64,000 bases of DNA from Candidatus Spyradenecus sp. (GTDB lineage: Bacteria; Verrucomicrobiota; Kiritimatiellia; RFP12; DVOR01). The notes beneath the pieces are model-generated. The model made no database searches. It was given only the letters and a program-made list of their open reading frames with translations, and was not told where the DNA came from. This document shows positions 2,401-54,714 of this stretch, piece after piece (within the stretch, counting starts at the first letter, position 1; the number at the start of each line of letters is the position of its first letter). The stretch spans positions 42,913 to 106,912 of the forward strand of contig JAZLBT010000015.1 in NCBI GenBank assembly GCA_045613865.1. Reading direction: 5' to 3'. Made by a program: the position numbers and the translations under genes.

Positions 2401-2533
2401 ATTCCGCTTGTAATTTCTCGGCTAATAAGGTATCCTATTTAGTCAATGGTCACAAAAGACCAACTGTGAAGTTTTCAAAGTCGTGGATCACTTCACACCC
2501 ACAACCCTCACGACAACGTTAGGATATATCCAA

Positions 2534-3025
2534 ATGGATATTTATGTTGGCAATCTTGCCTACGCAACTACCAGCGAAACCCTTCGTGCTGCTTTTGCAG
2601 CCTTCGGCGAAGTCGCTTCGGCAGAAGTCAAAACCGATCGCATGAGCGGTCGTTCTAAAGGCTTTGGTTTCGTTGAAATGCCCAATCCAGAAGAGGCAAA
2701 TGCCGCCATTGCTGCGCTCAATGAATCCGAGCTCGATGGCCGTAACATTCGTGTGAACGAATCGAATCCCCAAGCACGTGATAGCCGTCCGCCTCGCCGT
2801 GGTGGTTTTGATCGTGGTCCTCGTCGTGAAGGTGGTCGCGGTGGCTTCGGTGGCGGCCGTGGTGGGTTTGGAGGAGAACGTCGCTCCTTTGGCGATCGTC
2901 GTGAAGGTGGTCGTGGTGGTTTCGGCGGTGGCCCTCGTCGCGAAGGTGGCCGTCCGGGTGGTCGCGGTGGCTTCGGTCGTCCGCGTCGTGAAAAGAGTGA
3001 TGTGCCTCGCGAATCGAAGTGGTAA
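2534..3025 (+). CDS. RRM-domain RNA-binding protein with a C-terminal Gly/Arg-rich (RGG) tail
   Basis: IYVGNL (RNP2) and KGFGFVEM (RNP1) motifs are present. The C-terminal 75 aa is made of GGRGGFGG and RREGG repeats. The likely start is the internal ATG at 2534 (MDIYVGNL); the ORF track starts at 2483. Confidence 0.8.
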   Translation: MDIYVGNLAYATTSETLRAAFAAFGEVASAEVKTDRMSGRSKGFGFVEMPNPEEANAAIAALNESELDGRNIRVNESNPQARDSRPPRRGGFDRGPRREGGRGGFGGGRGGFGGERRSFGDRREGGRGGFGGGPRREGGRPGGRGGFGRPRREKSDVPRESKW

Positions 3026-4469: not shown

Positions 4470-5267
4470 ATGAAGTTATGGAAATGTGCTCATTTGACGG
4501 TAAGGCTTGATCGGCCTTTGCTGATGGGTATTATTAACGTAACACCAGATTCGTTTGTTGCAGCAAGTCGTGTTGCCGATATTGAACACGCACTTGAACG
4601 CGCGGCACAAATGGTTGCTGCAGGGGTAGACATTCTTGATGTCGGCGGTGAATCAACGCGACCTGGTGCAACACCTTTGGATGCAACGCTTGAATGTGAT
4701 CGTGTTGTACCTGTCATTGAAGCATTACATCAAACATTCCCCAATGTGCTCATCTCCGTGGATACGTACAAAACGCGTGTAGCAAAGGCGGCGCTTGAGG
4801 CAGGCGCCGTGATTGTCAACGATGTTCACGGCTGTCAACCTGATGAAGGAATGTGGGAGTTTATCGTTCAGTCAGGTGCAGGGTATGTGTTGATGCATTC
4901 GCGTGGAGATGCCCAGACAATGGATGGATGTTGTGATTATACTTCTGTTGTCGATGATGTTTATTCTACACTTGCTTCTGCCGGTGCACAGTTAGAGGCT
5001 TTAGGGGCTGCGCGTGAACAGATCGTTGTAGATGTCGGATTTGGATTTGCGAAAACGGCAAAGGATTGTATTGCATTGATGGAGGCAACGGAGCGTTTTG
5101 CAACGTTACCTTATGGTCTCTTGGCGGGCGTCTCAAAGAAGCGTTTCTTATCATTGGTCGACACGGATGAGGATGCAACGGTGTGGGCGTCAAAGCGTTT
5201 GATTGCTTTGGGAACGAATATTGTTCGCGTGCATGATGTTGAGGCGATGGCTCGAGTTTTGGGATGA
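4470..5267 (+). CDS. folP: Dihydropteroate synthase
   Basis: MGIINVTPDSF, DILDVGGESTRPGA and the pterin-binding fold pattern are typical of FolP; the length is 265 aa. Confidence 0.85.
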   Translation: MKLWKCAHLTVRLDRPLLMGIINVTPDSFVAASRVADIEHALERAAQMVAAGVDILDVGGESTRPGATPLDATLECDRVVPVIEALHQTFPNVLISVDTYKTRVAKAALEAGAVIVNDVHGCQPDEGMWEFIVQSGAGYVLMHSRGDAQTMDGCCDYTSVVDDVYSTLASAGAQLEALGAAREQIVVDVGFGFAKTAKDCIALMEATERFATLPYGLLAGVSKKRFLSLVDTDEDATVWASKRLIALGTNIVRVHDVEAMARVLG

Positions 5268-6118
5268 TTGGAAGGATTGATGGGATGTTTGATTCATGGG
5301 TAACGAATGTTCTTGATATTTTTCAAGTTTACTTGTTGACGATGGGCGTCTATTGGGTGCTCAAGTTTTTACGTGGCACACGCGCTGCGCAAATGTTAAT
5401 TGGCGTTGGCGGTCTCTTTTTATCGATTTACTTTTTAACCATCGTTTTGGATCTCGATGTATTACGCGAAATTTTGCGTTGGTCATCGATTTTCTTCTTG
5501 TTAGCACTTTTGGTGGTCTTCCATCCAGAGATTCGTCGCGCGTTGTCAATCTTAGGGCGTAACACAACCATTCAATTGCTTCAGGGAAATATTCCTGAAA
5601 CACCAATTGAACGTATTATTCGCATTGCCCGTTCATTAGCCAATGCGCGTTTAGGTGCATTGATTGCCTTGGAACGAACAGTATCGCTAGAACGTTGGGC
5701 GGAATCAGGGATTGCGCTTGATGCATTAGTCAGCGAGGAGTTGTTAACAACAATCTTTACGCCGCCTTTACCATTGCATGATGGTGGCGCAATTATTCGT
5801 GGTGAACGTTTGGTCGCAGCACATTGTATTTTCCCTATCGACAACGAGGAGTCTGTTCACGGTGCGGGGATGCGCCACCGTGCGGCACTCTCGCTTTCAA
5901 CAGAGTGTGATGCCATTATTCTTGTTGTTTCTGAAGAGCGTGGTCAAGTTTCAATCGCGCGTGAAGGCGCACTCTTAAGAAATTTATCAGACCATCAATT
6001 ACGGAGTATTCTTGAAACACATTTGGCGCCTCAGCATTCAAAGTATTATCACTTGCCGTGGTATTTGCGCCCTATTGCATTTTTGATTCGTCGCCCAAAG
6101 AAGGAGGGTGATAAATGA
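5264..6118 (+). CDS. cdaA: Diadenylate cyclase CdaA (c-di-AMP synthase, DAC domain) with an N-terminal membrane anchor
   Basis: Three predicted N-terminal TM helices. DAC-domain motifs GALIALER and PLHDGGAIIRG, and RHRAALSLS, are present. The start overlaps the folP stop (ATGA). Confidence 0.85.
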   Translation: MIGRIDGMFDSWVTNVLDIFQVYLLTMGVYWVLKFLRGTRAAQMLIGVGGLFLSIYFLTIVLDLDVLREILRWSSIFFLLALLVVFHPEIRRALSILGRNTTIQLLQGNIPETPIERIIRIARSLANARLGALIALERTVSLERWAESGIALDALVSEELLTTIFTPPLPLHDGGAIIRGERLVAAHCIFPIDNEESVHGAGMRHRAALSLSTECDAIILVVSEERGQVSIAREGALLRNLSDHQLRSILETHLAPQHSKYYHLPWYLRPIAFLIRRPKKEGDK

Positions 6119-7215
6119 GTTTTTCAACATTCTTTTCTCACAGCTATCAAGCGAGCGTGCGGTTTTTACGTTGGCTTCTTAGAGATTGGCCGTGGAAGCT
6201 TGTAGCCTTGGGGATTGGACTTTTTCTCTTTTTCAGTATCCGTCAAACAGTGAGCCATACACAAACCTTAAGTTTGATGGTTGAGGCGGATTTAACGGAT
6301 GGTGCACACGCATTACGCGGATTCTCGCCAGCGGCAGTGCGCGTAACGTTTCGTGGTTCTGAATCTGAAATTCGCCGTTTATCGTTGCGAGGGAGTGAAC
6401 CGCCTCGTGTAACCGTGCGTTTGCAACAACCCCCCGCAGGGCAAACGCAAGTGCCCGTAACCTTAACGCGTCGAAACGTATTGGTTGATGGAGATTTGCA
6501 TATTGTCTCGGTTGAGCCAGCACAGGTGGTTGCCGAATATGACACAAGTGAAACGCGTTATTTCAATGTCGAAACGCCGCTTGTTCACGGCGAAACAGAA
6601 ACAACAAAGTTTAGTGTCACGCTTGATCCTGGTTATGTTGAGGTTACAGGTCCACGCGAACGCCTTGATGAGCTTGTCGAACAGTCGATTGAATTACCCA
6701 CAGAACCCATTGAAGCGATTGGCCGCACGGAAGATTTCTCGGTTGTATTACGCGTTCAACCGCCAGATTCTCGTTCGAGTTGGACGGTGAGTCCAGCAAC
6801 GGTTCGTGCAGATGTGAAGGTTTTACGCGATGCAAGTAAACGAGACTTTGATCGTGTGGGCGTGCGCGTCTTACAATCTGCAGAGGGGCAGACGTATCAA
6901 TTAAAGCCTGAAACAATTAAGCTCACAATCGAAGGCGTTAAAGAAGAGTTAGACGCCATTCTTGCTGAATCGCTGCTCGCGGTCGTTGAGCCACCGCAAA
7001 TTGCTAACACCACGGAGCAAGATGATGCGCCCATTTATGTTAAGCCGAACCTGATTTTCCCTTATAATCGTCGTGTGAAGTCCATTGAGATGACGCCAAG
7101 CGTTGTACAGTTGATTCCAGATAAACCTCGCGAGCAGCCCAAAGGCGCGCAGGAGGATGTAAGTCCCGTTGCGGAATCGACCAATGAGACAAGCGAGAGG
7201 AGTGATGTAAAATGA
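6115..7215 (+). CDS. cdaR: CdaR-like regulator of CdaA (YbbR-repeat protein), membrane-anchored
   Basis: One N-terminal TM helix followed by repeated beta-rich modules of about 90 aa. It sits immediately downstream of cdaA with an ATGA start/stop overlap, the conserved cdaA-cdaR arrangement. Confidence 0.5.
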   Translation: MSFSTFFSHSYQASVRFLRWLLRDWPWKLVALGIGLFLFFSIRQTVSHTQTLSLMVEADLTDGAHALRGFSPAAVRVTFRGSESEIRRLSLRGSEPPRVTVRLQQPPAGQTQVPVTLTRRNVLVDGDLHIVSVEPAQVVAEYDTSETRYFNVETPLVHGETETTKFSVTLDPGYVEVTGPRERLDELVEQSIELPTEPIEAIGRTEDFSVVLRVQPPDSRSSWTVSPATVRADVKVLRDASKRDFDRVGVRVLQSAEGQTYQLKPETIKLTIEGVKEELDAILAESLLAVVEPPQIANTTEQDDAPIYVKPNLIFPYNRRVKSIEMTPSVVQLIPDKPREQPKGAQEDVSPVAESTNETSERSDVK

Positions 7216-8582
7216 AAATGTTACCAATGAAATATCGTTGGTTTACTTGTGCATTTTTTGCATGTGTGCTCGCAATTGTTGCTGCGATTTTGACAGATGC
7301 ATTTCTTGCACATTGGATTCCTAATCCCGATTTCTCTCATTGGGGTGAAGCCCCTTTAACAGAGCGTAGTCAACATATTCTTGATACAACACAGGGACAT
7401 GTTCAGGCGACGGCAATCTTTTCGAAAGATTCACCCATTAGCATTCCCGCAGGTCGTCTTCTTCGCACCTTTGCACAGGTGGCAAAAAAAGGCGGCTCGA
7501 TGGAGATGCAATTAAGTTATATTGATCCGCGTATTGATCTTGCCGGAGCTGCGCGCCTTAAAACGTTAGGCGCAAAGGGCGAAGGCGTCTTTTTGCAGCA
7601 CGCTGGTCAATCAACGTTTATCCCCTCTGAACATCTTTGTAATGGCGAAGGCTTATTCCATCTCGCAGAGGCAGAAGAATCGATCGCCGCAGGCATTCAT
7701 CGTTTGACACGTGGGTCTATTAAGGTCGGTTGGTTAACAGGTCATAATGAACCCTCTTACACAAATGCGGATTTGCTCAGTGGTCTCTCTGGCTTTGCTC
7801 GACTTTTACAAAACCAAGGCTATGTCATTGAGCCAGTGACCATTGACACACTCAATGCTGAAGCACCCATTCCACACGACATTCGCATTCTCTTTGTTGT
7901 TGCACCACAACTTCCACTTACCACAGATGAAAGTGCAATTCTTTTTGACTGGGTAAATGATGGCGGTCGTTTATTCTGTGCGTTACCAGCAAAGGATGAT
8001 GGTGGCATTGCTCCGCTTGCAGAACGTTGGGGAATTGAAATTGGGCATCAACCGATTCAACCTGTTCAAATCGACATGAATGGCGCAGGTCTCACGCGTT
8101 CACTTTCCAAAACACATCCTATTACACACGAATTTGACGATTCCGTAATAATGACATTTGTTGCGCCTCGCGCACTCGTCTATTCGCAAATCCAACAGAT
8201 GACGATTGAATCCATTGTTCAGATGCCCGATCGTCGCCAAGAAAAGGATGCGCGTTTACAAACAATTATGGCCGCCATTGAACGTGACGCCACGATGGGT
8301 GATGATTTAACATTGCGCACTGGCCGTATTCTCTTGTGCGGCGATGCACACTTCCTCGAAAATCGTTATCTCACACATTACGCAACGGCAAATCGCGAGC
8401 TTGTTGTTAATGCAATTTCTTGGTTGGGAGGCATTTCTACAGAAGGACAACAAAATGTGCTCAACATCCTTCGTGTTGCTCAAGACTCCAGAAGTTGGAG
8501 ATTGGACTTTCTTATGTTAGTGGGTGTTTATCCCCCTGTCTTTATCGTTCTTGTATGGTTGATTTTCCGGAGGCGCAAATGA
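7212..8582 (+). CDS. GldG-like protein (ABC-type uncharacterised transport system auxiliary component family)
   Basis: N-terminal and C-terminal TM helices flank a large extracytoplasmic domain. The C-terminal segment LLCGDAHFLENRYL...ANRELVVNAISWL resembles the GldG family signature (GDSDF..N). ATGA overlap with cdaR. Confidence 0.4.
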   Translation: MKMLPMKYRWFTCAFFACVLAIVAAILTDAFLAHWIPNPDFSHWGEAPLTERSQHILDTTQGHVQATAIFSKDSPISIPAGRLLRTFAQVAKKGGSMEMQLSYIDPRIDLAGAARLKTLGAKGEGVFLQHAGQSTFIPSEHLCNGEGLFHLAEAEESIAAGIHRLTRGSIKVGWLTGHNEPSYTNADLLSGLSGFARLLQNQGYVIEPVTIDTLNAEAPIPHDIRILFVVAPQLPLTTDESAILFDWVNDGGRLFCALPAKDDGGIAPLAERWGIEIGHQPIQPVQIDMNGAGLTRSLSKTHPITHEFDDSVIMTFVAPRALVYSQIQQMTIESIVQMPDRRQEKDARLQTIMAAIERDATMGDDLTLRTGRILLCGDAHFLENRYLTHYATANRELVVNAISWLGGISTEGQQNVLNILRVAQDSRSWRLDFLMLVGVYPPVFIVLVWLIFRRRK

Positions 8583-14557: not shown

Positions 14558-15865
14558 ATGCGACCAACACGGCAAACTTTAGCGGTTAACCTTTTGCTCG
14601 AAGGGCAAAAGGCGCTTGTTGTTGGCGGTGGCCGCGTTGGCTTGCGAAAAACCCACACCCTGCTCGCTGCGGGGATGAGTGTCCGACTCGTTTGCCCGAA
14701 GGCAGTTCCTGAATTTAAAGATATGGCAATTGAATGGAATCAAAAGAAATTTGATCCCTCAGATTTGGATGATTGCGCGCTTGTTATTGCATGTACAGAT
14801 GACAAATTCGTTAATCGTTCAGTTCTTGAAGCTGCCAAAAAGGCAAATATCCTTTGTTGTTGTGCGGATGGAAATTGGGCTGAAGGTGATTTTATTGTTC
14901 CCGCAACCTTCTCCACGAATGATGCCAAAATTTCTGTTTCTACAAATGGACGTAGTTGTCGATCCGCAAAACGAATAATGGAATCGCTTCAACGCTTTAT
15001 GACTCAACAAACGGATGGTTGTTTATTTATTCTTGGTGTCAACGAATCAATTCCCCTCCCCCTTTCAAAAGAGCTTCTCTCTCAACGACTCAACTTCCTT
15101 TCTGGTCTTTATGAATGGGTCTTTTTAACAACGTGCCATCGAACAATGTTTATTGCATGGGCAACACATGCATTAATTGAAAGTAAACTCTTACACCACA
15201 TCTTCAACTTCCCTGCATCCTACACCCATGAAAGCGAAGATGCGATGCGCCACCTAACCTATTTACTCGCTGGTCTAGAATCTCGCATGATTGGAGAATT
15301 TCATATTGTAGGTCAAGTTAGAGATGCATTTGACCATGCACGAGAAGCTGGCTGGGCACGAGCAGCATTACCAGAAGTTTATGCAGAAGCCTATCAACGC
15401 GCACAAAAACTTCGTAATGCCATTGCGCCCCACCTCCCAAACATTGAAGTTGAAGCCTTGGCATTAGAGGGTGCAACTGGCCGTGTTGTTATTGCAGGGA
15501 CTGGCTCGCTCGGCATGGCCACAGCACATCACGCGCGTAAAATGGGTCTTGACGTTACACTTCTCTACCATTCTCGCCCTGCGCAAGACGATTGGGATTG
15601 TCGACCGCTCAACGAATGGGAGTCCGCCATTAAAGGCGCCTCGCGTTTTATCTCTGCATGCACAATGGACACCCCCTATTTTGTTGCAGAAAAAATCCCC
15701 ATTCCAATGGTTGATCTTGGCGCTCCACGAAACATTGTAGGAGATAATAATGTACGAGATCTTGACGCCCTCCGTTGCGACTATCTTAAGCGAACAAATA
15801 GCGTAAATACTATTTTATCCATTGCCAACACCGTCTATCAAACGGGAGATTATCGTCATGTCTAA
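14558..15865 (+). CDS. hemA: Fusion protein. The N-terminal ~150 aa is precorrin-2 dehydrogenase / sirohydrochlorin ferrochelatase (SirC / CysG-N / Met8-like); the C-terminal ~285 aa is glutamyl-tRNA reductase (HemA catalytic + NADPH domains).
   Basis: The N-terminus shows LVVGGGRVGLRK, IACTDDKFVN and ISVSTNGRSCRSAKRI, matching the CysG-N pattern. The C-terminus shows LTTCHRTMF (HemA active-site Cys region), GEFHIVGQVRDAF, VVIAGTGSLGM (NADPH site) and MVDLGAPRNI. Confidence 0.65.
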   Translation: MRPTRQTLAVNLLLEGQKALVVGGGRVGLRKTHTLLAAGMSVRLVCPKAVPEFKDMAIEWNQKKFDPSDLDDCALVIACTDDKFVNRSVLEAAKKANILCCCADGNWAEGDFIVPATFSTNDAKISVSTNGRSCRSAKRIMESLQRFMTQQTDGCLFILGVNESIPLPLSKELLSQRLNFLSGLYEWVFLTTCHRTMFIAWATHALIESKLLHHIFNFPASYTHESEDAMRHLTYLLAGLESRMIGEFHIVGQVRDAFDHAREAGWARAALPEVYAEAYQRAQKLRNAIAPHLPNIEVEALALEGATGRVVIAGTGSLGMATAHHARKMGLDVTLLYHSRPAQDDWDCRPLNEWESAIKGASRFISACTMDTPYFVAEKIPIPMVDLGAPRNIVGDNNVRDLDALRCDYLKRTNSVNTILSIANTVYQTGDYRHV

Positions 15866-17846
15866 CACGTTTCGTGTCGGAGCTCGTGACTCTCAACTTT
15901 CACTCTTACAAGCACAAGAAGCCCTCCAACAAATAACGGCGTGCACAGGTGTAACATTTACACTAATTCCATTTTCTTCTCCTGGAGACCGAGACCAAAC
16001 CACAGATTTATCCATAAGTGATGACGATTTCTTTACCCGGGATCTTGACCATGCATTAATTTGTGGAGATATTGATTTTGCGATTCACTCGGCAAAGGAT
16101 CTTCCGCCTAACGGCTATACTCACGATATAGATTGGTTCTGGCTTCCGTGGCGAGAAGATCCGCGGGATAGTCTTATTTGTCGTTGTGAAAATCCAAAGG
16201 TGATTGGAGTCAGTAGCATTAGAAGAATTAACTGGGTTAAACAAAATCTTCCTAATGCAACATGTAAATCCCTAAGAGGAACAATTCCGTTACGCCTTGA
16301 AAAGCTTGATCGTGGCGAATATGATGCTATTCTTGTTGCAGCGGCAGCACTTCATCGCTTGGGGTTGCAACATCGAATTACACGCTATCTTTCATTAGAA
16401 GAGCTTCCCGTTCCAGAAGGTCAAGGTGTTTTAGCCATTACCCATCGTAAAGACGACAAGCGGATTCAGCAATTACGTAATTTGTGGCTTAAAAGTGTAC
16501 GTTTTATTGGTGCAGGGGTTGGTTCTGCAGAATTATGTACACTTGCAGGACTTCGAGAAATCCGACAAGCAGATACAATTATTTATGATGCTCTTATGGA
16601 TGCAACCCTTCTTAATGAAGCTCCATCCGCAAGAAAAATCTATGTTGGTAAACGAAATGGTGTTCATACACTTAAACAGCCAGAAATAACGAAACTCATC
16701 GAAACACATGTTCGTCGAGGAGAACGCGTTGTTCGACTTAAAGGTGGAGACCCTGGGCTCTTTGGCCGCCTAACAGAAGAAACCGATGCGCTCATTCATG
16801 CAAACATTCCATTCCGAGTTTGGCCTGGCGTTTCTGCTCTTACTGCGGCAACGACCGCCACAGGCCTCTTACTCACAGCAAGAGGCGAGAGTCGTGGCTT
16901 TACAGTCTCAACACCACGTAGTGAAAGCGATGCCATAAATGCCGTTTACTTTATGGCGCTTGGTATTGTTGAAACCATTACCGCTCAACACGCTTCTGAT
17001 ACACCTTGTGCCATCGTTACAGATGCAGCAACACCCAATCAAACAATTGAACTGATGACGGTTGGCCAGCTTCATAATCGTTCTACCAATCGCCCAGCAC
17101 TTCTTATTGTTGGACCAGCAGCAAAACACCTTTTCCAGCCATTAGGACCGCTCGCAGGAAGACGCATTTGGGTCACAGGAAGCAACTCTATTGCAGAAAA
17201 GGCTCACCGCATAATCACCGATCTTGGTGGCATACCAATTCTCTCCCCATTGGTTCAATTTAACCCCATTGATCGTATTAAAATCCGACCGAGTAAAGGC
17301 TATAATCTCCTCGTTTGCACCTCCCCCACTGCGGCAAAACTCTTTTTTAGCGAAATGGTCTCTCCTATCGTTTATATGCCAAAGAAAGTTGCTGTTACAG
17401 GTCCAGGAACCGCATCATACTTCCAACCATATAACATCGATGTTATATGTCCAGAAAAAGACTTCTCCGCAAAGGGGCTTCTCGCAACTCTTCCAAACGA
17501 TCTCAGCGGTATGAAAATCCTTCGTATCCGTAGCGTTGAAGCAGGAACAGCATTGTCAGAGGCTCTCAAAAAACGAGGGGCAAAAGTAAAAGATCTACCA
17601 TTTTACGAAACGATTGCATTGCCAGAGCCTCTCATTCCTCCGCACGACACAGTCTTTCTTGCTTCGTCCTCTGCTGCAAAAGCATGGCTAGCAAGTGGAG
17701 CTCCCCGAAGTGTCTCTATCATCGTAATGGGAGAACCAACAGCAAAACCTTTACGTGAGGCGGGGATTGAACCAACCTTTATTGCTCAATGTTCTGCCGT
17801 TGAGGACCTTTTTAATGCTTATAGCGCAAAGTTTATTTATGGATAA
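15858..17846 (+). CDS. Tri-domain fusion of truncated porphobilinogen deaminase (HemC domains 1-2), uroporphyrinogen-III C-methyltransferase (CobA/SUMT) and uroporphyrinogen-III synthase (HemD)
   Basis: HemC-like segment: [61 protein letters not shown] segment: [39 protein letters not shown]. The C-terminal ~230 aa is HemD-like. Start MSNTFRVG at 15858 overlaps the upstream stop. Confidence 0.6.
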
Positions 17847-19246: not shown

Positions 19247-20128
19247 TTATTCTGACGGACTGAGGAATGTACGTAAGGGACGGGCATCTTCATCTGTCGT
19301 AGTTGGCTCCGTCGACATTTCATCTGTTCGGTTCTCATTACGATACTTTGAGCGACATTCCGAACAATAGAAGAAATCCTTATCCCAAGACGTTTCTTCT
19401 TCCTTTCCGCAATTATCACATGTGCGAATTTTACGAGAGCGCTTTACACGACATTCCGCACAGAAGAATTCTTCTCCTGCCCACGTGGTTTCTTCTTCCT
19501 TTTCACAACACATGCAAACTCGCTTTTGAACTTCTCGTTGCAAGCGAAAATCCTTTGCGTGTTCATCCATATAAATATGTGGATAATCAAAACAACCAGG
19601 AGCGGTCAATAAAATCTTACTCGTAATCGAAATGTTACGCTGAGAAGTCATTGCAACCAACTGTACTCGTTTCCCAAGGCGACGAATACGACGAAGTACA
19701 GGCACATAATCAGCATCGCCTGCGACAAGTACTGCAACATCATAAACACCTGGAACAGTTGCATACCATGTCATTTCAGAAGCAAGGTTAGCATTCACCC
19801 ACTTCGTTTCAGGTGTTACACTCGGATCGCAACGAAAATCAATTTCCGTAATATCCATTTCATAACCACACTGTTCGCCCAAGAAATCATAAAAGATTTT
19901 TTGTTTCGTTGGATTATAGCCAACCTTATTAACTGGAATTGTTCCATAATAACACGTACGAACAATATCCACCTCTTGTCCACTAATCTCTGCTAAAGAC
20001 TGTGCAATAATATCAGGGATTCGTTTATAATCTACTTCAAAACCCTTTTCGCCTAATCGGTTAAAGAGCGCTTGTCGACCTTTATAAAGCCAACATCCAT
20101 CAATGAAAATCATCGCACGTATGGCCAT
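19247..20128 (-). CDS. NYN-domain (LabA-like) putative RNase fused to two C-terminal zinc-ribbon repeats
   Basis: N-terminal IFIDGCW...VAGDADYVP fits the NYN/PIN-like pattern. The C-terminus carries two copies of C..C.KEEET.W....FFC.ECR. Confidence 0.55.
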   Translation of the reverse strand: MAIRAMIFIDGCWLYKGRQALFNRLGEKGFEVDYKRIPDIIAQSLAEISGQEVDIVRTCYYGTIPVNKVGYNPTKQKIFYDFLGEQCGYEMDITEIDFRCDPSVTPETKWVNANLASEMTWYATVPGVYDVAVLVAGDADYVPVLRRIRRLGKRVQLVAMTSQRNISITSKILLTAPGCFDYPHIYMDEHAKDFRLQREVQKRVCMCCEKEEETTWAGEEFFCAECRVKRSRKIRTCDNCGKEEETSWDKDFFYCSECRSKYRNENRTDEMSTEPTTTDEDARPLRTFLSPSE

Positions 20129-21011: not shown

Positions 21012-24000
21012 TTATTTCTTACGTTCAAGTTTTTTAACGTCTTCTTGCGACATCAAGACAACTTGGAAGTATTTACAATCCGTTGCGATATTGAGAATAC
21101 GTGGCGCGCCGCCAGAGGTATTCACATCCGAAGCGACATCCAACGTTTGGACAAAATACCATGCAGGATCAGAAAGTGTCTCCTTTCCAACAAGAACAAG
21201 TGTACCATCTGCATAGAGTTGCTTAATCTCTGTTGCACCATTCATAAGTGTAACCGATGCCTGAACACTCTTTTCTGCATTGTTTTCGATTATACCGAAA
21301 GCCGAGAAGCAGAGCGAGACATTGTCACCATTATCCGTAAGTGCGTCATCAAAGCCAAGCCAATACTTTTCTGACAAATCAATCGTACCACTGTTCATTG
21401 CTTGAGCAACGTCAGATGGTGTACCAGAGGCGATTAACCATGCTTCATAGCCAGCATCTTGAGGAGCAGAGTCCTTCAACTTTACAAGGATCTTTTGCGC
21501 TTCCTTATTCGGCACCAACATAACAACATAATTCTTGTCTGTATCAAGGAGCGCCGAATCATAAGAAGACGTCGATACCGAGCGTAAGCCAAGGCCATTA
21601 TCATCCTTTGACGGATCAAAGTCAATACAGTAGCGTCTTAACGTCATTGTCTTCTTTGTCGTGTTCAACGTTGTGACAAGATCCGTTGCGACCTTCACCT
21701 GACTAGAAGCAGCATTACTTAATGCTACATCAACATCAAACCACTCATCCGCAACCGGCTCAAGTGTCAAACGATAACGTGTATTCACTGGGAGATTTGC
21801 CACCGTAAACGACGAAGCTCGAGTCTTCAACGCCGTCAAAATGTCATTTCCTTCTGCATCTGTATAAACACGAGCAAGATCAAAGGTTGGCGTTGGCATC
21901 TTTGCTTCAAGCGCATTCAAGCCCAACGTTCCACCCATATAGCTTGCGCTAATTCGATACGTCCGCGAGATGAAGGCTATAAATTCATCCAACGACATCG
22001 AGGAATAAGGCTGCTTGAAATAATCGCCAGAGAAAGTCGCACTTGTATTATTATTGGGGCCAGGAATTGTAGAAACACCCGAACTTATTAAATAATCCAT
22101 GGGGTACCACACGCGCTGTTGATTTGCAATCGCCTCAAGACCAGATCCATTCTTCTTATAAACATCTACAAAGAGAATAGACGTATTACCCGCTAATCTA
22201 CCAATTGCGATGTTGACATAACGAATAATATTAGAAGAAGCAAAAGACTGCGTCTCAAGGGTTGCAATCTCCGACAAACGCGCATCAAGCGTCAACATCT
22301 CACCCAACGAATCAACTGCATTTTCGTTATTATGCGAGAAGAGAATCTCATCGGCAACAACACCATTATTACGCACGAGCTCAATACCAAAAACAAGTCC
22401 ATCCTTAGCATAATCTACGCCAAGTTCACTGTTAAGATACTTCACCAATGCGTCATAATTCGGGAAGATTTCCATCGTACCAATAGTAGCATCATCACCA
22501 AATTTCGTCTTTTTACCATTCTCTTCAGTCAACAATTCCACCGGGATTGTTGGCGTCTTCAAATAGACGAATTGATCAACATCCATTGCAGGGACAAGTG
22601 TACCCGTTCCCGAGCCATCGTCAACATATTCTCCCGATTGCTTAAGGCATGTAGCATAATCCAAACGCGACAACTCTGCCGTTAACGGATTATATGCTTC
22701 ATCAAACTTAAGATTCGTGATTTCATTATGACTTGTAGCAATTGCATAATAATCAATGCTATCTGCACTTGCATCCGTCGAAACAATACGCTTACCAGGA
22801 ATCCAAGACTTCAACTCAATCGTACGATTATAAAGCGGATGATCCATTGCAAGCATATCGGTCGAACGCGTCCAATTAAGTTTTGTTTTAGCATCCATTG
22901 TCGTTACATCTGGCATCGGTGCATACTTCACAACAATCTTCCAACCATCCAAGGATTGTGCCGGACGATAAAGTTTCTTAGATCCGAAATCAACTTCTGT
23001 AACCGTCGTTGCACGCATTGCAAGTTCAATCGCAGAACCATAACTATCTGTGTGGAAAGGACGAATTTCGTTAATCCAGACATCATTATAACCGATGGAA
23101 TAAATCCATGCATAAGGTGCCACGCCAGCCTTTTGACTCGTTGCCACATAGTTCACATCCGCACGATCTTCAGGAACATACCACGGGCAGTAAACAGGAA
23201 GATTGTCAGACGAGAAATTCGAAACGCCCTGGCAATCAATAATTTCACCCGTTGTTACATCCACGAGAACAACTGCGAAACGAAGAATGGCGCCTTCCGA
23301 CCACACACTTTCATTTTCAGCATTCTTCATCGATAACGTTGCCGTCAACGGAACAAGCGAGTCCTCATTCTGGATCATTGCCAACGCGCCATCATCGTCT
23401 GTTGTCGACGGATCACCCGCATTCAATGCCGCTGTAAGTTCGTCATTCGTCATCACTCGGAAGGCAAGATACGGTGCTTCCGAATCCTTCTTCAAGGCTT
23501 CAACCTCTTGTAATGTCAGCGAGGTCTTATTTTCGAAATCCTCTGTTTCAACTTGATCATCAATCGAACCGCGAATACCCTGAAGCGTCATCGGCAAAAT
23601 ACCACCCTTAACATAAGGCAAGCTCATCGACTTACCACTGTTAGCAAGTTGAAGATTGGTGCGCAACTTCTTGAAATCTGCCGTTACACCATCTCCAATT
23701 GCAGGCATTGCGCCAAACAACTTTGAAATATCCCAGTTTGCAAGGAAAGTTGTTGCACTTTGAGAAGCTGCCCCCGTAAAGAGATCGGAAGGCACTTTAT
23801 TTTTATCGGTCAATGCCCAAACAAGCATCGGAACAACCGTTGGCTTTTCAGAGGTCATCTCTTCAATAATGGTCTCACGAGCATACAAACCATTATCAGG
23901 GCGAATCACTGCCGACATCGACAAGGTATCACCAATCAACGGCTGATAAATCCAACCATGCTTATCACAATGTTCGCCTTCACCATTACCGATTTCATCA

Positions 24001-27000
24001 TCCCAAATAGGATTGGTTACAACCTCACCACCCTTTGTTAAGTCAGGAGCACCAGTGCTATCCAATCCATAGAAGCTCTGAGATACAAGCCATGCACCAA
24101 ATTCAATGCTACCAGGACGCATTGCCATAACAAGATTATTTGTTGCAGACGCCGGTTCTGCAATGAGAAGAACTGCAACCACATAATCATCTGTATCTTG
24201 GAAGAGCAATCCCGAGGTTTCATCAACCACCGCATCGCCATTAAAGATAATACGACCCGTAAAGGATTCTTCACCCGCGACCTCTGCAGTTGCAAAACCT
24301 CCGAGCTCAACATATATGCGAGCCTTTTCTGCATTTGACGTGGCAGTCTCTGCACGATAATAGGTTTCCCGTGCAAGCATCAACAAATCACCCTGCGAGA
24401 ATTCTTCACCCTTTGCAAGACGTTTGCCAACAAGAAGTACTTTACCCATCCATTCTGCAGGAAGCGTCAAGTAATCATAGGTATATCCCACGCGAGGACG
24501 ATAGGTAATCACACGCTGAATTTGATTCTTTGTGATATCAGAAACCCACGAATTCGCAGCAAACGATTCTTCTGCTGTAGCGCCAATAACTGTCGTTTCC
24601 GTTGGCACATAACCAAAGGCTTGCCAACCACAAGGCGATCCACCATAAACCGTATTCAACAATGTTGATGTCACACGAATGCGATTCCATTCGGGATTCG
24701 AATCAAGACCAACATCACCATTGGCGCCATTCTCTGTGCCGTTAGTTTCAGAGGCAACAAAACGCCACAAGGTTCGCTCTGCGCGGGTTTCACGCAAGAT
24801 GTCACCAAACTCATCGGTCGTTGTACCACCGACCAACTGAATCGAACCTGCTGTATTCAAGGCATCCGTTTGCCCCTCTACAATGTAGTGGCCAAGCGTA
24901 GTAGAAACATCGGTGGTAGCAGGAATACTACTTCCACCATTAGCTGTAACACCCGTCCAAACGCCACCCTCGCCTGCACCACACGGACGAATCAATGCAA
25001 CGGCAACAGCATCTTCATTTACATCAGTTGCCGTCTTAGCAACAAACTTGTAAGAGAAAGATGAAATCGCATCAAGCGCTTGAGCATCGCTCATATCCAC
25101 CCAGTCCATCGCTGTTCCACCTGGAACAGTATATTGGACCTTCCATCCATCTGTTGTAACTTCTGGTACACCTTCACCAAGACCTGCCCCAAGAATACCC
25201 TGACGCAACTTTGGAATAACCACTTCAACAAATGGCTCCGTTCCCGTACCTTTAACAAGGTTAACCTCATTCAACCACACCGATTCCGGAGGTGTGCTAT
25301 AGAGGTAGAAGTAAGGGATTTCTCCTTCTTGCTTTAATGGCGCATACCACTCTGGCCATGCATAACGAGGACTGGAAGTATCCTGAGGAATCAAATACTG
25401 AATTGTCTCTGTCGATGCACCCGATTGTACCGTAACGGCATAAACACCCCAGGCAAGATAGGGAATCTTTGGCTCCTTAATTATTATATTGCCATTAAGA
25501 TCCTTTTTCATATAGCTATCACCCAAGACCGTTACACACGTTGGGCTATAAATCTCACTTAAAGTGTCATTCACTTTACGCGTCAAGTCTAATACCGCAG
25601 AGCGCAAATAACCAGCGTCTCCCAACGCATTCATCTCGGCTTTAGCTTTGTCAAAGGTAAGACCCGTTAACGCAAGAATCTTATTCTTCCACTCCGTCCA
25701 CATTGTATCATCAAGATATGCAGTGGGATACGTGATAATCGCCCCAACAAGGCGTGCATTCTTTGCCGCTAATTCCGCGGTATTATATTTCACACTAAAT
25801 CCGAAGGCGCTACCACACCACGGTTGATACTTCGCATCACCCGTAAGCGCATCACCACAGAATGGCGAAACCTCCGTAATAATATCCTCTGCACCCTCTG
25901 CTGCAACAATATAATTTGCAGATAAGGTAAAGGAATACTTCGTTCCATCATTAAGCTCTGGAATCAATTGTAGGACAAGACGATCCACATTCTTTGGCTC
26001 AAAGGTTGCGACCATCGTGTTCGGTTGATTGACATCCGAAGCAAACGTTACACTAAACGAAGTCTCATCTTCAACGATTAAGTTTTTAAGCGCTTCTTCT
26101 GTTGCAACGGCCACACCATCTTCTGTACTTGTCGCAGTTAATGTAACCTTTTCAAGTTTATTAAACGGGAAGGCGGTATAGGTAACTTTAACCTTTGATC
26201 CATCAGGAATCGTACGATAAATCATATCACGACCACCAAAGATCGTTGTTGTACTAATCCCATTTTCATCAAGGAAGTCAACCATATGCTGACCAAGACC
26301 ATTAACTTGAGAAGAGATTGTATTACCATTTGGATCTGCATAGTAAATCAACCACTGATCAAGGTTAATTTGACGAGGTGTAACTTGAACCTCTTTATTC
26401 GTATCTCCTGGACGAGCCTGTTCTGTCAAATTGAGCGTTATATTAAACGGAGAGGCAAAAAGGTGGCTAACATCTAGCTGCCCCTTTTCCTCATTTTCCG
26501 TTCCAAGGGGTGTATTCGCATTGGTACGCATAACCCAAGCACCACCCATGTCGATCGTTGCAATCGAGTTTACGCGCTCCTTGCTTGAAGAACGAGCATC
26601 ACCAATAAAATTCTCTGTTGTGCCATTCTTGTCATAAATGCCATCGGCATTTGTCTTAAATGTCTTCACAACAGCGAGACGACGTGCATGATCTGCAGAT
26701 GTATAATTCGCATCGGGCTTATTCGTCGAGGAATCCCAATCTTCCTCACGGAAACTTTGGAACCATTCTGTACCGAAGCCTTCTTGTTTATAAGCAGTAC
26801 GATACTTTGTTGCTAATGCATCCAGACGAGACTCGGCATTGACAGATGATCCTTGACCATCTTGCCACAAGCTGTAAAGCACAATATGCTCTGCACCACC
26901 CGTTGGACGATAGAGGCGAAGCGCAACAGCAGCACTGTTCGTTCTTTCATAACCAGAATAAAGCCCCGTTTGTGCACGACCCGCATTTTTATGAGGTTCA

Positions 27001-30000
27001 CTCGTAACATTCTCATTATTTGCGAGAAGATTCGAATTCGCATTAATGATGGTATAAAATGTTCGATTCGAAAGCGGAGTTGCACCGCCCTGTGCAGGAA
27101 CTGCACCTGGATCAGGAACAAGCGGAGTCCCTTCATCTCTAATTGCAAAGGTCTCAACTGTAGAGAGTAAATTTGCATCGGAGATATCCGCGAACCAACC
27201 ATTCATGGAGTTCTTTGCCGGTGTACAGAATTCAATAAATCGTTTCATCAATGTTCTTGATGCATCGTTCATATTAAATTCATTAATAAAGACTTCTCCA
27301 GGAACGGTGTCATAAAGCCAAAAATAAGGCGTAAAGAAGCTTGAACCCTTTGTGTCAAAGGCGCCAACACCTGCATTTTCCGCATTTGAAGCAAGCTCAT
27401 TACAACGTGTACGCATTTCCGTATTAAGATTGCGCGGGAAATACCATGGGAAATCGGTATACGAGCCAGCATCAATAATCGAATATCCATAGCGTGGATT
27501 ATCCTCTGTACTATCCTCTGTTTCAAAAACCGCCCATACGGCATAACGCACAAGTCCATTTACTTTCAACTTCTTTATTTCATCAAACGCATCCGCATCA
27601 TCAGAGATTGTCCTAAAGGTTTGCTTTTCCGACGGCTCATCCTGACGCGTAAGCAAGATGGTATTTCCTTGCAAACTTGTCAAACTCTCAAGACCAGAAG
27701 CGGTTAACGCATCGTAATTTGCTTTATTCTCTGCTGCATCCAAACGCATGAAGGTGTCTTCAATTGCAGCACGCTTTGTTGCAAACCATGTTTCGAGCCC
27801 CCAAGCATCCAATGCTTGGGCAGCCTCTTCAAAGCTTGCCTTTGTGTCGCCAAGATTTTCAGTAATAGAAACATTCGATTCTATCGTAGGATCCCATGCA
27901 TAAATCGGTGTTGTTGCAGCTTCAACCGTTGTATCCAAAGCATTTCGGTAAGAATAATCCGAAGTAACACGTTTCATCTCCGTTGGAACATTCCACGTAA
28001 AGAAGACCTTAATTGAATCTTTCTTCACTTGCTGCAACCGATCCACTGTCACTTTTACCGCAAGAGGAGAACCCGCAAGTGGTTGAGAAAGCGGCGAATT
28101 ACGACCATCGGCAACGTCAAAAATACCACTGGCGCCATCCAACACTTTCGTATGCTTTTCAAAATTGTCTCCCGGAAGCGTTGAGAAACAAACATTACTC
28201 AAGCGTACAGAGGGAGCAATTGGTTCTGTGATAGAAAGTTTATCCAACCAAATGCGACCATACGCCTCAACTTGAGGTACACCATTACGACCATCAACAA
28301 CTCCACCCTCTACAGGAACATGAAGGCGAATGCGCTTCAAACTCTTATAATTCGGAATTATTTTAGTCAAATCAACATCATATTGACGATAAAGCGTATC
28401 CTCGATTTTTACACGTGTAAGATACGTATAATCATCTGGGAAGGACAATGATTCATGAGCATCAATGGTTTCACTCTCATAACCATAGACATAAACATAA
28501 TGATTTTCCAAAGAAGGCTCGTCAAGACGTGCAGCAAAACTAATAATCCCCGCACCCTTTTCCAAAATCGGAGACTCTACATAAGACTGAAGCAAAGGAT
28601 TTTCAATGCCACCAACAACATCCTCTGTGATGTGGTCATTAAAAAGTACGGCGCGCGTAAGACGACTCTTCCATGCGAACGTCTTTTCATTAATATTTTT
28701 CGCAAGACGATCCTTCCAATAAAGAGATGCTATTGGCTCTTCGCTTAATCGAATGTTACCTGCACTCCAAAGCGCCACCTCGCCAGAACTTGACGTAATA
28801 CGGAAATCATCAAGATAAACATAGGGGTCATCAGTACTATCAATCGGAGAAACCATGACGAGTCGAAGAATACCACGTTCCATCGAAACATATTTCGAAT
28901 TTTCTAATAGACGCGGTGTGATTGACATCGTTCGCCATTCACCATTGGTTATAGGAAGCTCAATTTCTGTCGAAACATTTTCCCAACTCGACAATGGATA
29001 AGAATCATTCAAATTATCAGTATGAGAGCTTCGGGCATTTGTGTATTGAAGCAACAAACTCACCGAAGGATTCTGTACATTGTCTTTAAATTCACTTTGT
29101 AAAGGAATACGATAACGGAAAGAAATCGTTCCAAAGTTATCGCTCGAATAAGGCGTATAAAGCGCCAATGTACTTGCTGTATGATGAATATTATTCGTCG
29201 ATCCTGCAGAAAGTCCGTTAGAAGTGTTACGTCGAGAATACTGCATCAAGAGACACTGCTCACCCGTGTATTCCGTTGGCTGCGCACTATTTTGCGATTC
29301 GTCTACTGGCTGTACCCAAACACCAACAGCAGAGAAACCATCCGTTTCCGACTCATTCCAATGTGTATTGGTATAAAGAGGAACTTTCGTTCCATTACGA
29401 TTCGTATCATCACCCTGCCACGAGCTAACCGTCAAATCATCAATGAAGACTTCGTTCCCATCTGTTGCCACAAGCGAGAGCGAAAGATCTGCTCGACCCA
29501 CCGTGATAGAATACTCTTGCTCTGTATCTCCCGCGGTAAACACGGCTAATTGCTCCGATTTGCCCTCCGAAGCAGAATATCCATCTAACCGAACCTGAGC
29601 AGAGGTGTCCGCGGGGCGTTTGCCACGTTGAAGTTGTAACTGTGAACCACTTGCGCTATTCACGACCCACTTCGCGTCTGACGTAAGAAGTTCCACTTTT
29701 GTTGTGTCTGGGGTATATGTTAAACCCTCAAATGCGCCATTGGTCGCATTCATATAAACAATAGAGTTAAAGATCGGCCAACATTCCGCCGAACCAAATG
29801 CAATATGCGTTAATGTTGTTTGGGGAACTGTACTCGTTGATTTAATTGTTTTATTCGCAAAGGATGCATTCAAGAAGCCCGCATCATCAATCCAAAGTCG
29901 CGCTTCTTTATTTTGCATCGAATCCTGATTCGTTACATGATAGTCCTTAGTGCCATTATCAACCTCGAACGACTTACGTGTAGCAACGCCCCCTGTCCAT

Positions 30001-33000
30001 TGCCATAACTCCATGACAACACGTTCTTGAGGACGTTCGCGACCATCTTGATAAATGAAAATCTGCGACAATCGTAATTCGTAATAAGTGGAAGTAAGTC
30101 CAACATTACAAAGATAAAGCGAAGTTGAATAACCAGACTTTGTTTTATCATTAATAGCAATTGTTGTACCAACACCCTTAAACGTCTTTGACGAATCACT
30201 GCAAAAAACAATACGGTCAATCGCATAGGGTTCCGAACGACTAAGCTTAAAACGAACCTCTCCTATACCCTTAAGAAGGGAAATATCACTACGAGCATCC
30301 GTAGACTGTTTAATGGTAGCATTACCAGACAATCGAACCATCGCATCGGGTTGATATCCCGATGGCGTCTCAATCATACTATTCGCGTCAAGTTTTAATA
30401 CAACCTGATTACCGTAAGAACTGCCAAATTCAAAGCCCTCGGTCCATGTTCTCGAATCATCTTCATCTTCACGCAAATACTTATGTGACGCAGGTTCACT
30501 CGAAGCACCCCAAGATGCAAAATAGTCTGCCGCAATGTTTGCAAGATCGCCAACAAAGAACTGATACGAAATACCAATATCCCCTGACGATTGCTTATTA
30601 TCACCATAAGCACGGCCAACCGTAAAATGATCCGTAATTTCAGAGGTTGTTGCAAGTGGACCTTGATCAGGAATCCAACCTCTTGAAATCTTTCCATCAC
30701 CCGAGATGATTGCATCAAAATTCGCGACCGCCGACTTTACATTCTCATGGAATTCTGTGTCAGCAAAGAGTCCATTTGACGCAGCATCCCATGTATTAAA
30801 ATCTTGTTCATTTGCACCACAAACAGAAAGTGTCCCAGCCTGCGTTGCAATATCTTCTGGCTCCTTAAAGGTGACACACAGATGTGTCGCACTGAGCTCG
30901 GAAATGTCAACCAAAATGGGAACGATCTCTTCAGGCGTTTTACCCGCTGTTAAGATTTCACCATTTGTTAACGAAATTGTACTTCCTGGATATGCAGGCA
31001 ATGTCGTTGGCATGCCACCTTGAACAACCGTTTCATTTTGACCATACCAATATTCATTGCCGTTCGGTTGACGAACACGAACTCGGAAGTTTACAAGATT
31101 TAAATGGTATTCCGCATCCCCGTCTGTCGCATCTGTAACCCAGGCATAAATCGCATCTGAATCCTTCTTTTCGGTATCCCCAGAATATATAATATTTCCC
31201 TCTGCAGAAACTGCAATTTCTTTAGGAAGCATCACATACCAAGAGCGAGATTCACGACCATCAGGAATGAAATTAACTTCTGCATCCTTCATCACATAGC
31301 CAAACGTTTCTCCTGCTCGCGTACGATATGTTAACACCATATCGATTTGCGTAGCATTCGTAAGTTGCTCTCGAACTTCAAGTGTTAAAGGATAGAAGCC
31401 CTTTGTTGAATCATTGTCATCTACTGGCAATTCCTTCACAAGAAGTGTTGTTTGCTCACGCTTATCCAAAACATCTCGGCCAGCCTCAAACGAACCAAGT
31501 AACTTACAATCTAATGTAAGATTATACACGCCTGGCAAAAGCGAAACTACATTGCCTTTTTCATCACGGCAAAAGGAGTTCTCTGCCACATTTGTAAATG
31601 CACCAAGACCATTTTTTGTAAGACGCTTAGAGTCTACGCCCATAAATGATGCAACAAGGGACTCACTATCAACCTCCATTGCCGCACTGTATGTTCCGCA
31701 AGCCTCATCACTGTCTGCTCGACGCGACAGCCCAAGAGATGCCTCATATCCTCGTGGCACCCGATTTACATTAGGGGTAACCTTAAAGTTAACCGTATAA
31801 CGTTCGCCCTCGTTCTTTTCTACATTATAGACATTACATGCTGCACCAATAAGATTTGCATCATTATCCTTAATTTGTGGTGCACCAATTGTTGCCATTG
31901 GTGTAGCTGATGAGACACGCAACTCTCGAATAAGAATCGTTGTCGCATACGCGTCATCAATCGTAACCTCGTTGCCAAATGATGTTACACGTAAAATACG
32001 GAATTGAGCCCCTGCATTCCCTGTAGCCTCTTCGTCCACCTTCACCGTAACAGATGTAAGACTTTGTGTTGGTGTAATAAGTGTTGCTGTAGGGTTACCT
32101 AAATCTTGCTTTACAAACGTACCATTTGCCCCTTTAACAGAAACACCTTCTGTCGTCCAAACACCTCCAACTTTCACCTGTACATAAAGATACTGTGGAG
32201 ATTCTGTTGCATCCGTAACAATCTTCGTCTTAAAGACAATCTTACTAATACCATCGGGGTAGGTTGGAGAGACAACCATCGGACAATCTTCAAACGTCTG
32301 TAAATTCTTGATGTTTTCAAGAGTCACGTCCACATCATTTAACAACAATGCACCCTCGTCTACGTAATTGCCTCCCGCAGAACCCAATGCAACTTTCTTT
32401 AATTCCCACGAAGTCCCAGAAATAGCCATGGAATCAAGCATATAAGCATTGTACTTCTCACGACCAAAATAAGAATCGCTCCAAACGTTATCTGTATTAT
32501 CATCACGATTAACCCCACGCCAAATACGCGGGTCTGTGAAATCCATCTTACGGCCATGGTCTTGAATATCAGAAACAATCGTGAAGAGGCCTAAACCGTA
32601 CCGCGATGCCGCATACCACTCATACGTTGCACGACCATTAATCAACGAATCCAAAAGCGGATTCATATTTTCAGGATTATTCCAATCAATCACAAGCACA
32701 TTACTATAAAAACGGCGTTCCCAACGCGCAGGATCGCGCACTGTTCCCACAGTCAAGGAGGTCAATGTGTCAGGAATCGAAGCGCCAGAAGAAACCACAT
32801 CTCGATTAATATCCCCCTGCTGAGGCATGGGATAATAACCCGAATCTTCTGCGGTTAAATAGATTGCACCAGACCACGCAGAGCCTTCGCCTCCATGCGG
32901 ACGATACATAAGGGTTGCAGGAATAGCTCGAAGTGTAGTCGCAATTCCCTTTGTTCCCGTACGAGGAACCGACACCGTTAAGCAAACCTGTGCGCTTGTT

Positions 33001-33182: not shown

Positions 33183-33183
33183 A

Positions 33184-54675: not shown

Positions 54676-54714
54676 ACCGTGTACCACTCCATTTCAAGGG
54701 GGTTTTTTATAAAA

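Follow-up and report, generated by a model that had tools for sequence, protein, structure and literature searches.

Textbooks characterise porphobilinogen deaminase by a dipyrromethane cofactor linked to a cysteine. In E. coli HemC, a protein of 313 amino acids (aa), a thioether bond holds this cofactor on Cys242 of domain 3. Here, we analysed a 64,000-nucleotide stretch of the Candidatus Spyradenecus sp. genome (assembly GCA_045613865.1, contig JAZLBT010000015.1, positions 42,913 to 106,912 of the forward strand; hereafter the window), which encodes HemC, SUMT (CobA) and HemD modules fused in a single protein of 662 aa. By fold and active site, the HemC module of this fusion belongs to the hydroxymethylbilane synthase superfamily, but it is without domain 3 and without the cofactor cysteine, both of which define the canonical enzyme.

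Canonical hydroxymethylbilane synthase (HMBS; E. coli HemC, PDB 1PDA and 1AH5, and human HMBS) shares with the HemC module the fold of domains 1 and 2, about 33% identity and the same position in the hem operon. The two also have in common Asp84, Arg11, Arg131, Arg132, Arg149, Arg155, Arg176, Ser13, Gln19, Lys83, Phe62 and Gln198 (E. coli numbering). Unlike the canonical enzyme, the module has no domain 3 or Cys242, has lost K55 and K59, shows aspartate for I48 and G60 and phenylalanine for L61, and is followed at its C-terminal end by SUMT and HemD.

The short HemC of the Chlamydia type (NF002202/PRK01066, a model of 241 positions named hydroxymethylbilane synthase) has the same architecture of domains 1 and 2 only. 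The D..DFFT lid of the fusion's HemC, described below, is also invariant in the Chlamydiales and Parachlamydia members examined. In Chlamydiales, hemC lies beside hemD or the two form a HemC-HemD fusion, whereas the HemC of the window is fused to SUMT-HemD instead. The fusion matches NF002202 at positions 20-225 of 241 with 127.7 bits, below the cut-off of 251 bits, and its HemC therefore belongs to a different subfamily (Kiritimatiellia/Lentisphaerae). Environmental Chlamydiales members score 200-233 bits on the same model. The short form is already recognised by annotation, as a name, and we found no mechanistic study of it. A full-text search returned no account of a HemC without domain 3 or without the cysteine, although subscription papers were thinly covered by it and prior notice is possible.

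CobA-HemD fusions are known in many anaerobes. Tri-fusions with the same module order as ours, and with the same span from porphobilinogen to precorrin-2, occur in Clostridia/Lachnospiraceae (Clostridiales, Lachnospiraceae and Pilosibacter; loci L043, L073 and L074). However, these proteins of 808-828 aa (stop to stop) keep domain 3 between HemC domains 1-2 and SUMT, and have the canonical GAGPGD loop. Therefore, fusion alone does not explain the loss of domain 3. With their canonical HemC, the clostridial proteins appear to represent either an ancestral form of this fusion or one that arose independently. The HmbS-UroS (HemC/D) protein of Leptospira interrogans is a bifunctional HemC-HemD fusion which, unlike the tri-fusion of the window, has no SUMT module; a dual activity is reported for it in the work of Guegan et al., as relayed in bioRxiv 10.1101/2021.02.09.429727.

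The HemC module and the absence of domain 3

The complete HemC-SUMT(CobA)-HemD gene lies at 15858-17846 on the plus strand, as the open reading frame (ORF) list, Pfam and NCBIfam indicate. Its ORF is bounded by 15822 and 17846, and the likely start is the ATG at 15858. An exact-sequence look-up of the 662-aa protein gave no record. Pfam assigns aa 5-204 to Porphobil_deam (PF01379, profile positions 1-206 of 207, E 6e-49), aa 216-405 to TP_methylase (PF00590, E 1.7e-33, over its cut-off) and aa 451-652 to HEM4 (PF02602, profile positions 5-230 of 231, E 9e-29), the last of which identifies the HemD domain. The HemC module itself (aa 1-209; 15858-16484) comprises domains 1 and 2 with a complete active site and stops at the final helix of domain 1. 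Aligning 25 tri-fusions, we find that merely 4-5 residues separate the end of HemC domain 1 from the first strand and P-loop of the methyltransferase; this junction covers aa 205-219 (16470-16514).

We looked for domain 3 by several routes, which all agree. Using phmmer against PDB sequences, aa 2-206 align to residues 3-215 of the 313 residues of E. coli HemC, and residues 216-313, including Cys242, are left uncovered. The TIGR00212 hemC model gives 167.7 bits against a cut-off of 164, and only its positions 2-211 of 293 are matched. Porphobil_deamC (PF03900), the Pfam model for domain 3, has no match in the fusion even at E<=1. The stretches of the 662-aa protein outside the assigned domains are each at most about 11 aa long, and therefore too short to accommodate a diverged domain 3, which would need about 85 aa. 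We also made a domain-3 hidden Markov model (HMM) from 22 full-length HemCs. As a positive control, it picks up domain 3 in 44/44 HemC loci from outside the Planctomycetes-Verrucomicrobia-Chlamydiae (PVC) superphylum. Run on all six reading frames of the window, the same HMM gave no match (best E 0.62). Domain-3-like ORFs are absent from the window, and also from the ±6-10 kb flanks of about 45 loci with a two-domain hemC. Taken together, Pfam at E<=1, the HMM on the six-frame window and on the 80 related loci introduced below, and the residue accounting rule out a hidden or diverged domain 3.

The first-pass annotation of this DNA had described 15858-16520 (aa 1-221) as HemC domains 1-2 which lack domain 3 and run straight into SUMT, with an altered KGLF/ELE region. 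All motifs that it quoted are found as described, and its account of the architecture stands. It had allowed that domain 3 might turn out to be present but diverged, and this is not what we find. In the absence of domain 3 and Cys242, the canonical thioether-linked dipyrromethane is impossible in this protein.

A conserved two-domain HemC family in hem operons

The active site of the HemC module is complete. It retains all that deamination of porphobilinogen and C-C coupling require, together with Arg-lined sites for several pyrrole rings. The catalytic Asp and the Arg, Ser, Gln and Lys residues that bind the pyrrole carboxylates are all present: R10, S12, Q18, F59, K80 and D81 of the fusion correspond to R11, S13, Q19, F62, K83 and D84 of E. 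coli, and S120, R122, R123, R140, R146, R167 and Q189 to S129, R131, R132, R149, R155, R176 and Q198. By its profile match, the module belongs to Porphobil_deam domains 1-2, with their periplasmic-binding-protein-like fold. An AlphaFold2 model of aa 1-211 has a mean predicted local distance difference test score (pLDDT) of 94.2. In Foldseek comparisons, this model matched 32 solved HMBS chains with query-normalised template modelling (TM) scores of 0.78-0.90 over domains 1-2; every solved HMBS structure among these matches is of the three-domain form.

Searching for homologues with aa 1-221 of the fusion, we listed 120 sequences. Of these listed homologues, 77 combine complete domains 1-2 with the absence of domain 3, and 21 are canonical three-domain proteins at 34-39% identity. 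The named sources among the listed homologues are Lentisphaerae, Kiritimatiellia, Pontiella, Verrucomicrobiota, Chlamydiales and Simkaniaceae. The 77 domain-3-less sequences without exception have R11, Q19, F62, K83, D84, S129, R132, R149, G150 and R155 (E. coli numbering), and 75-76 of them have S13, R131, A170, R176, Q198 and G199. The module is also the best-conserved part of the fusion, with a mean pairwise identity among 25 tri-fusions of 50% for HemC, 45% for SUMT and 37% for HemD.

We then built a profile from 53 family members and compared it with 1.84 billion cluster representatives (50% identity clusters), which gave 19,336 HemC-like matches. Domain 3 was found in none of the 149 best-scoring new clusters (0/149) of these matches. 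The 149 clusters differ in what accompanies HemC. HemC-HemD fusions make up 78 of them, HemC without another detected module 44, HemC-SUMT-HemD 17 and HemC-SUMT 4, and SirC and/or HemA stands upstream of HemC in a further 6. The HemC-HemD fusions trace to Neochlamydia and Parachlamydiaceae (722 matches at E<=1e-20). Two two-domain HemCs (P0109 and P0114) carry a C-terminal ArsC/low-molecular-weight phosphatase-like domain exactly at the place of domain 3. The CX5R cysteines of this domain are kept in P0114 (CIENSCRS) and lost in P0109 (SIENSLRS). As a general alternative donor of the cysteine, this domain was ruled out, since P0109 is without the CX5R cysteines.

Scanning species-representative genomes, we obtained 80 loci. 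The closest of these are from an uncultured Kiritimatiellaeota metagenome-assembled genome (62% identity) and from Candidatus Spyradenecus (59%). Most of the 37 domain-3-less loci belong to Kiritimatiellia, Lentisphaerae/Victivallales, Verrucomicrobia and Chlamydiae. A single ORF of about 700-760 aa with HemC(domains 1-2)-SUMT-HemD is found in about 27 PVC genomes (L011-L037 and L059), with no domain 3 within ±6 kb. An assembly or frameshift artefact is ruled out for the fusion of the window, given its continuous ORF and the repetition of the architecture in these genomes. At one locus (L004, 10001-12174), a seeming stand-alone HemC of 240 aa followed by CobA-HemD is a tri-fusion frameshifted within the GAGxG motif; the frameshift is probably a sequencing error, the contig having 2.25x coverage. 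The two-domain HemC is thus typical of the PVC superphylum, in Kiritimatiellia, Lentisphaerae/Victivallales, Verrucomicrobia, Chlamydiae and some Planctomycetes, together with WS1. The HemC module of the window is a member of this large conserved family and not an accidentally truncated enzyme.

Genomic context is the strongest argument that the two-domain HemC is a working enzyme. The gene string sirC-hemA-hemC-cobA-hemD-hemB-hemL occurs at two loci (L005 and L006) with a two-domain HemC of 212 aa. In Pontiella, a fused sirC-hemA gene, the same SirC-HemA fusion as upstream of the tri-fusion of the window, is followed by hemC (226 aa), hemB and hemL. A further locus (L038) reads [sirC-hemA-hemC]-[cobA-hemD], with a SirC-HemA-HemC(two-domain) ORF of 740 aa (stop to stop) at 4483-6702 and CobA-HemD at 6666-8072. 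Chlamydiales have radA-hemC-hemD, and hemE and hemN lie close by. Each of these strings has the two-domain gene as its sole hemC. The arrangement of the window, [SirC-HemA] followed by [HemC-SUMT-HemD], reads as another way of fusing the same conserved gene string.

A remodelled lid, no conserved cysteine and the proposed mechanism

The active-site lid of the module (aa 44-60; 15987-16037) is remodelled at family-specific alignment columns. It has D46, D57, F58 and T60 where E. coli has I48, G60, L61 and V63, and there is no Lys at the K55 and K59 positions. We compared the lid and R101 across 82 genome loci, 37 domain-3-less and 45 domain-3-containing. Position 48 is Asp in 37/37 of the former and in 6/45 of the latter. 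K59 is kept in 0/37 of the domain-3-less loci, whereas 33/45 of the domain-3-containing loci keep it. At position 60, Asp occurs in 36/37 against 0/45, and at position 61 Phe occurs in 37/37 against 0/45. The replacement of V63 by Thr is less exclusive (36/37 against 20/45). Taken as a signature, D48/D60/F61 tracks the absence of domain 3 in the 82 loci. The D..DFFT lid, in place of K-G-L-F-V, is a hallmark of the two-domain HemC family; the altered KGLF/ELE region noticed at first pass is this lid.

R101 of E. coli is present in 45/45 loci with domain 3 and in only 15/37 without it. Its counterpart in human HMBS, R116, is joined to domain 3 by a salt bridge (R116-E250) that matters for function. 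The partial loss of R101 fits a relaxed domain-3 interface and not a domain supplied in trans. A lid remodelled alongside the loss of domain 3 looks like compensation for the missing domain, not like retention of an interface.

The first-pass annotation had offered two explanations for the missing cysteine, namely that it is supplied from elsewhere in the fusion or that the domain is a non-catalytic binding module. Its observations (domains 1-2 only, no cofactor cysteine, an altered lid) hold, but neither of these two explanations is the one that the evidence favours. The cysteines of the HemC module (C29, C69, C108, C110 and C136) are all in non-conserved columns. There is no conserved Cys column in the HemC alignment, where the best column has Cys in 23/119 sequences. 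No conserved Cys is shared among the adjacent or fused HemD partners; in the 78 HemC-HemD fusions, the best Cys column reaches 39/78 and lies within domain 1. Along the 25 aligned tri-fusions, we found no invariant Cys anywhere.

Some members have no cysteine at all. These are 6/65 of the complete stand-alone members found with the HemC segment of the window, 3/37 of the stand-alone cluster representatives found with the profile, and one whole HemC-HemD fusion of 401 aa, P0174 (the others being P0012, P0030, P0044, P0074, P0111, P0113, P0121, P0184 and P0209). P0030 sits in the complete L005 operon, and P0044 is a Chlamydiales protein. With no conserved Cys and with Cys-free members, an in-cis thioether-linked cofactor cannot be the rule of the family.

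Since the canonical thioether is impossible, the chain is most likely extended on a primer held non-covalently. On balance, we find it likely that the HemC module is the catalytic part of a conserved family of two-domain hydroxymethylbilane (HMB) synthases, most probably holding the primer or chain without a covalent bond. The module would be the working HMB synthase of the organism, and would convert four porphobilinogens to HMB. The HemC-SUMT-HemD fusion as a whole would lead from porphobilinogen to precorrin-2, while the upstream SirC-HemA would provide the first step, glutamyl-tRNA reduction, and the last step, the final dehydrogenation, around it. A free dipyrromethane or bilane, held non-covalently, could serve as the primer. 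So could the first porphobilinogen itself, in which case four condensations would yield aminomethylbilane. Deamination and hydration of the latter to HMB would then proceed by the same Asp-catalysed chemistry as the deamination of the substrate. The deaminase is said to handle aminomethylbilane, according to work of the Battersby era.

In either case, the Arg cluster would hold the pyrrole chain. With the lysines of the lid lost, its invariant aspartates (D46 and D57) may, speculatively, anchor the cationic aminomethyl head in place of the covalent tether. The labile bilane would go straight to HemD, through fusion or through translational coupling of the adjacent gene, and in the window it would pass on to SUMT and then to the upstream SirC. 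We extend this scheme tentatively to the whole widespread family, including the Chlamydia enzymes and this tri-fusion; that all of them make the linear tetrapyrrole without a covalent dipyrromethane, either on a primer held non-covalently or by head-to-tail assembly that needs no primer and finishes by deaminating an aminomethylbilane, with the lid aspartates anchoring the chain head, has in our estimate nearly balanced chances that lean slightly against it.

Several points weigh against a Cys-free, non-covalent enzyme. The HMB synthase activity is a prediction from operon position and residue conservation. A canonical hemC or a stand-alone domain 3 was sought only in the window and within ±6-10 kb of about 45 related loci. 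In a deep mutational scan of canonical human HMBS, C261 tolerates no substitution, and reviews of 2020, 2021 and 2026 either give the Cys-linked cofactor as the mechanism or make no mention of a domain-3-less enzyme. A Cys-free mechanism is therefore without experimental precedent. Finally, one cysteine of the fusion, Cys227 in the P-loop of SUMT, is enriched in exactly this tri-fusion subclade (17/24 aligned). At the same position, 0/21 motif-matched SUMTs from canonical-HemC loci have Cys, the residue there being I or L.

These points feed the other explanations. Cys227 lies about 17 residues past the HemC module, close in sequence to where domain 3 would begin, and might tether the dipyrromethane in the tri-fusion subclade; it recurs in further truncated Kiritimatiellia/Lentisphaerae tri-fusions with a readable P-loop. 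We nevertheless regard this as highly improbable. About 30% of the same subclade have V, I, T, A, L or M instead, and the SUMTs beside or fused to two-domain HemCs at L005, L038, L056 and L088 are without it. The family also occurs unfused, fused to HemD (the two-domain HemC is found in four other fusion arrangements as well) and Cys-free. Judging from the known SUMT fold, the residue would moreover sit within the SAM-binding (S-adenosylmethionine-binding) helix of the methyltransferase and not in a mobile loop. A cysteine could also come from outside the protein, if domain 3 or a small Cys-bearing carrier were encoded elsewhere, docked in trans and supplied the thioether anchor. The canonical chemistry strictly needs the cysteine, the search spanned only the window and the flanks, and the subclade of the fusion keeps R99, the equivalent of E. 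coli R101, which pairs with domain 3 in canonical enzymes. Such a split enzyme seems to us unlikely all the same. Neither the six frames of the window nor the flanks searched hold a domain-3-like ORF, although the other hem genes all cluster in those flanks, and most of the family has relaxed R101 while remodelling the lid.

The remaining explanation, and the one to which we give the least credence, is that the module is a non-catalytic scaffold or a porphobilinogen- or bilane-binding domain, or a decaying remnant, with a canonical HemC outside the window making HMB. A feature held essential for catalysis is indeed missing, and a second gene could lie outside the window. But the catalytic Asp and the substrate-site residues are conserved across 77 sequences, and HemC is more conserved than the SUMT and HemD of the same protein, which speaks against the binding module and leads us to reject the decayed remnant that the first-pass annotation had considered. 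The two-domain gene also takes the sole hemC position in complete hem operons, and no fewer than 149 clusters (50% identity) belong to its family. In Chlamydiales, which also have hemB, hemE, hemN and hemY, it is a single-copy core gene; for 37 genomes of Chlamydiales, porphobilinogen deaminase is listed among the core genes present once per genome (PMC3899948). We therefore stay with a catalytic two-domain HMB synthase that holds its chain non-covalently as the likely explanation.

Other features of the locus and significance

The SUMT/CobA module (aa 213-423; 16494-17126, TP_methylase in Pfam) has an atypical SAM loop. At 16518-16550 (aa 221-231), it reads GAGVGS in place of the GAGPGD of the canonical motif GAGPGDPxL[IL]T. 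The module scores 162.8 bits on TIGR01469 (cut-off 185) and 169.9 bits on NF004790 (cut-off 198). With scores under these NCBIfam cut-offs, its activity may deserve a check. The HemD (uroporphyrinogen-III synthase) module at aa 434-654 (17157-17819) is seen by HEM4, and NCBIfam NF004593 spans exactly these residues.

Immediately upstream, at 14558-15865 on the same strand, lies a fusion of a SirC-like precorrin-2 dehydrogenase and a short glutamyl-tRNA reductase (HemA), which is translationally coupled to the tri-fusion. The ATG at 15858 overlaps its TAA stop (15863-15865) by 8 nt, and a Shine-Dalgarno-like GGGAG, read from the sequence at 15844-15848, stands 10 nt 5' of this ATG within the end of the upstream gene. 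The upstream protein has NAD_binding_7 at aa 12-116 and GlutR_N at aa 175-287, together with a Rossmann domain. It matches TIGR01470 and TIGR01035 and also NF001909, an NCBIfam glutamyl-tRNA reductase model of 338 positions. Pfam finds no match to the GlutR dimerisation domain in this protein. HemA appears to be minimised in this lineage, like the HemD of about 205 aa in relatives.

Neither hemB nor hemL is present within the 64-kb window. The neighbouring genes encode housekeeping functions, including TsaD, FolP, a DAC-domain cyclase, a PAS histidine kinase, a Wzz/tyrosine-kinase-like protein and MnmE, as well as glycogen phosphorylase, an RpoD of 837 aa and EF-G. The window is therefore ordinary chromosome. 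A bacterial protein with an RNA recognition motif (RRM_1) is encoded at 2483-3025 (+). A NYN-domain protein at 19247-20128 (-) has in its C-terminal half repeated CxxC...CxxC motifs (CMCCEKEEETTWAGEEFFCAEC, CDNCGKEEETSWDKDFFYCSEC) which resemble duplicated zinc ribbons. Two giant ORFs lie on the minus strand, one of 4059 aa at 21012-33191 with no Pfam match, and one of 4666 aa at 40687-54687 with only Laminin_G_3 at about aa 2942-3089. Several ORFs of 360-540 aa on the opposite strand inside 40687-54687 are probably spurious.

If the non-covalent two-domain synthase proposed here is true, it would be the first exception to a mechanism of tetrapyrrole biosynthesis that is regarded as universal. 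Either the covalent anchor is dispensable or a partner supplies it, and both would change the view of the polymerisation mechanism. The Chlamydia enzyme is a member of the family, and the two-domain form may also distinguish the enzyme of the pathogen from human HMBS.

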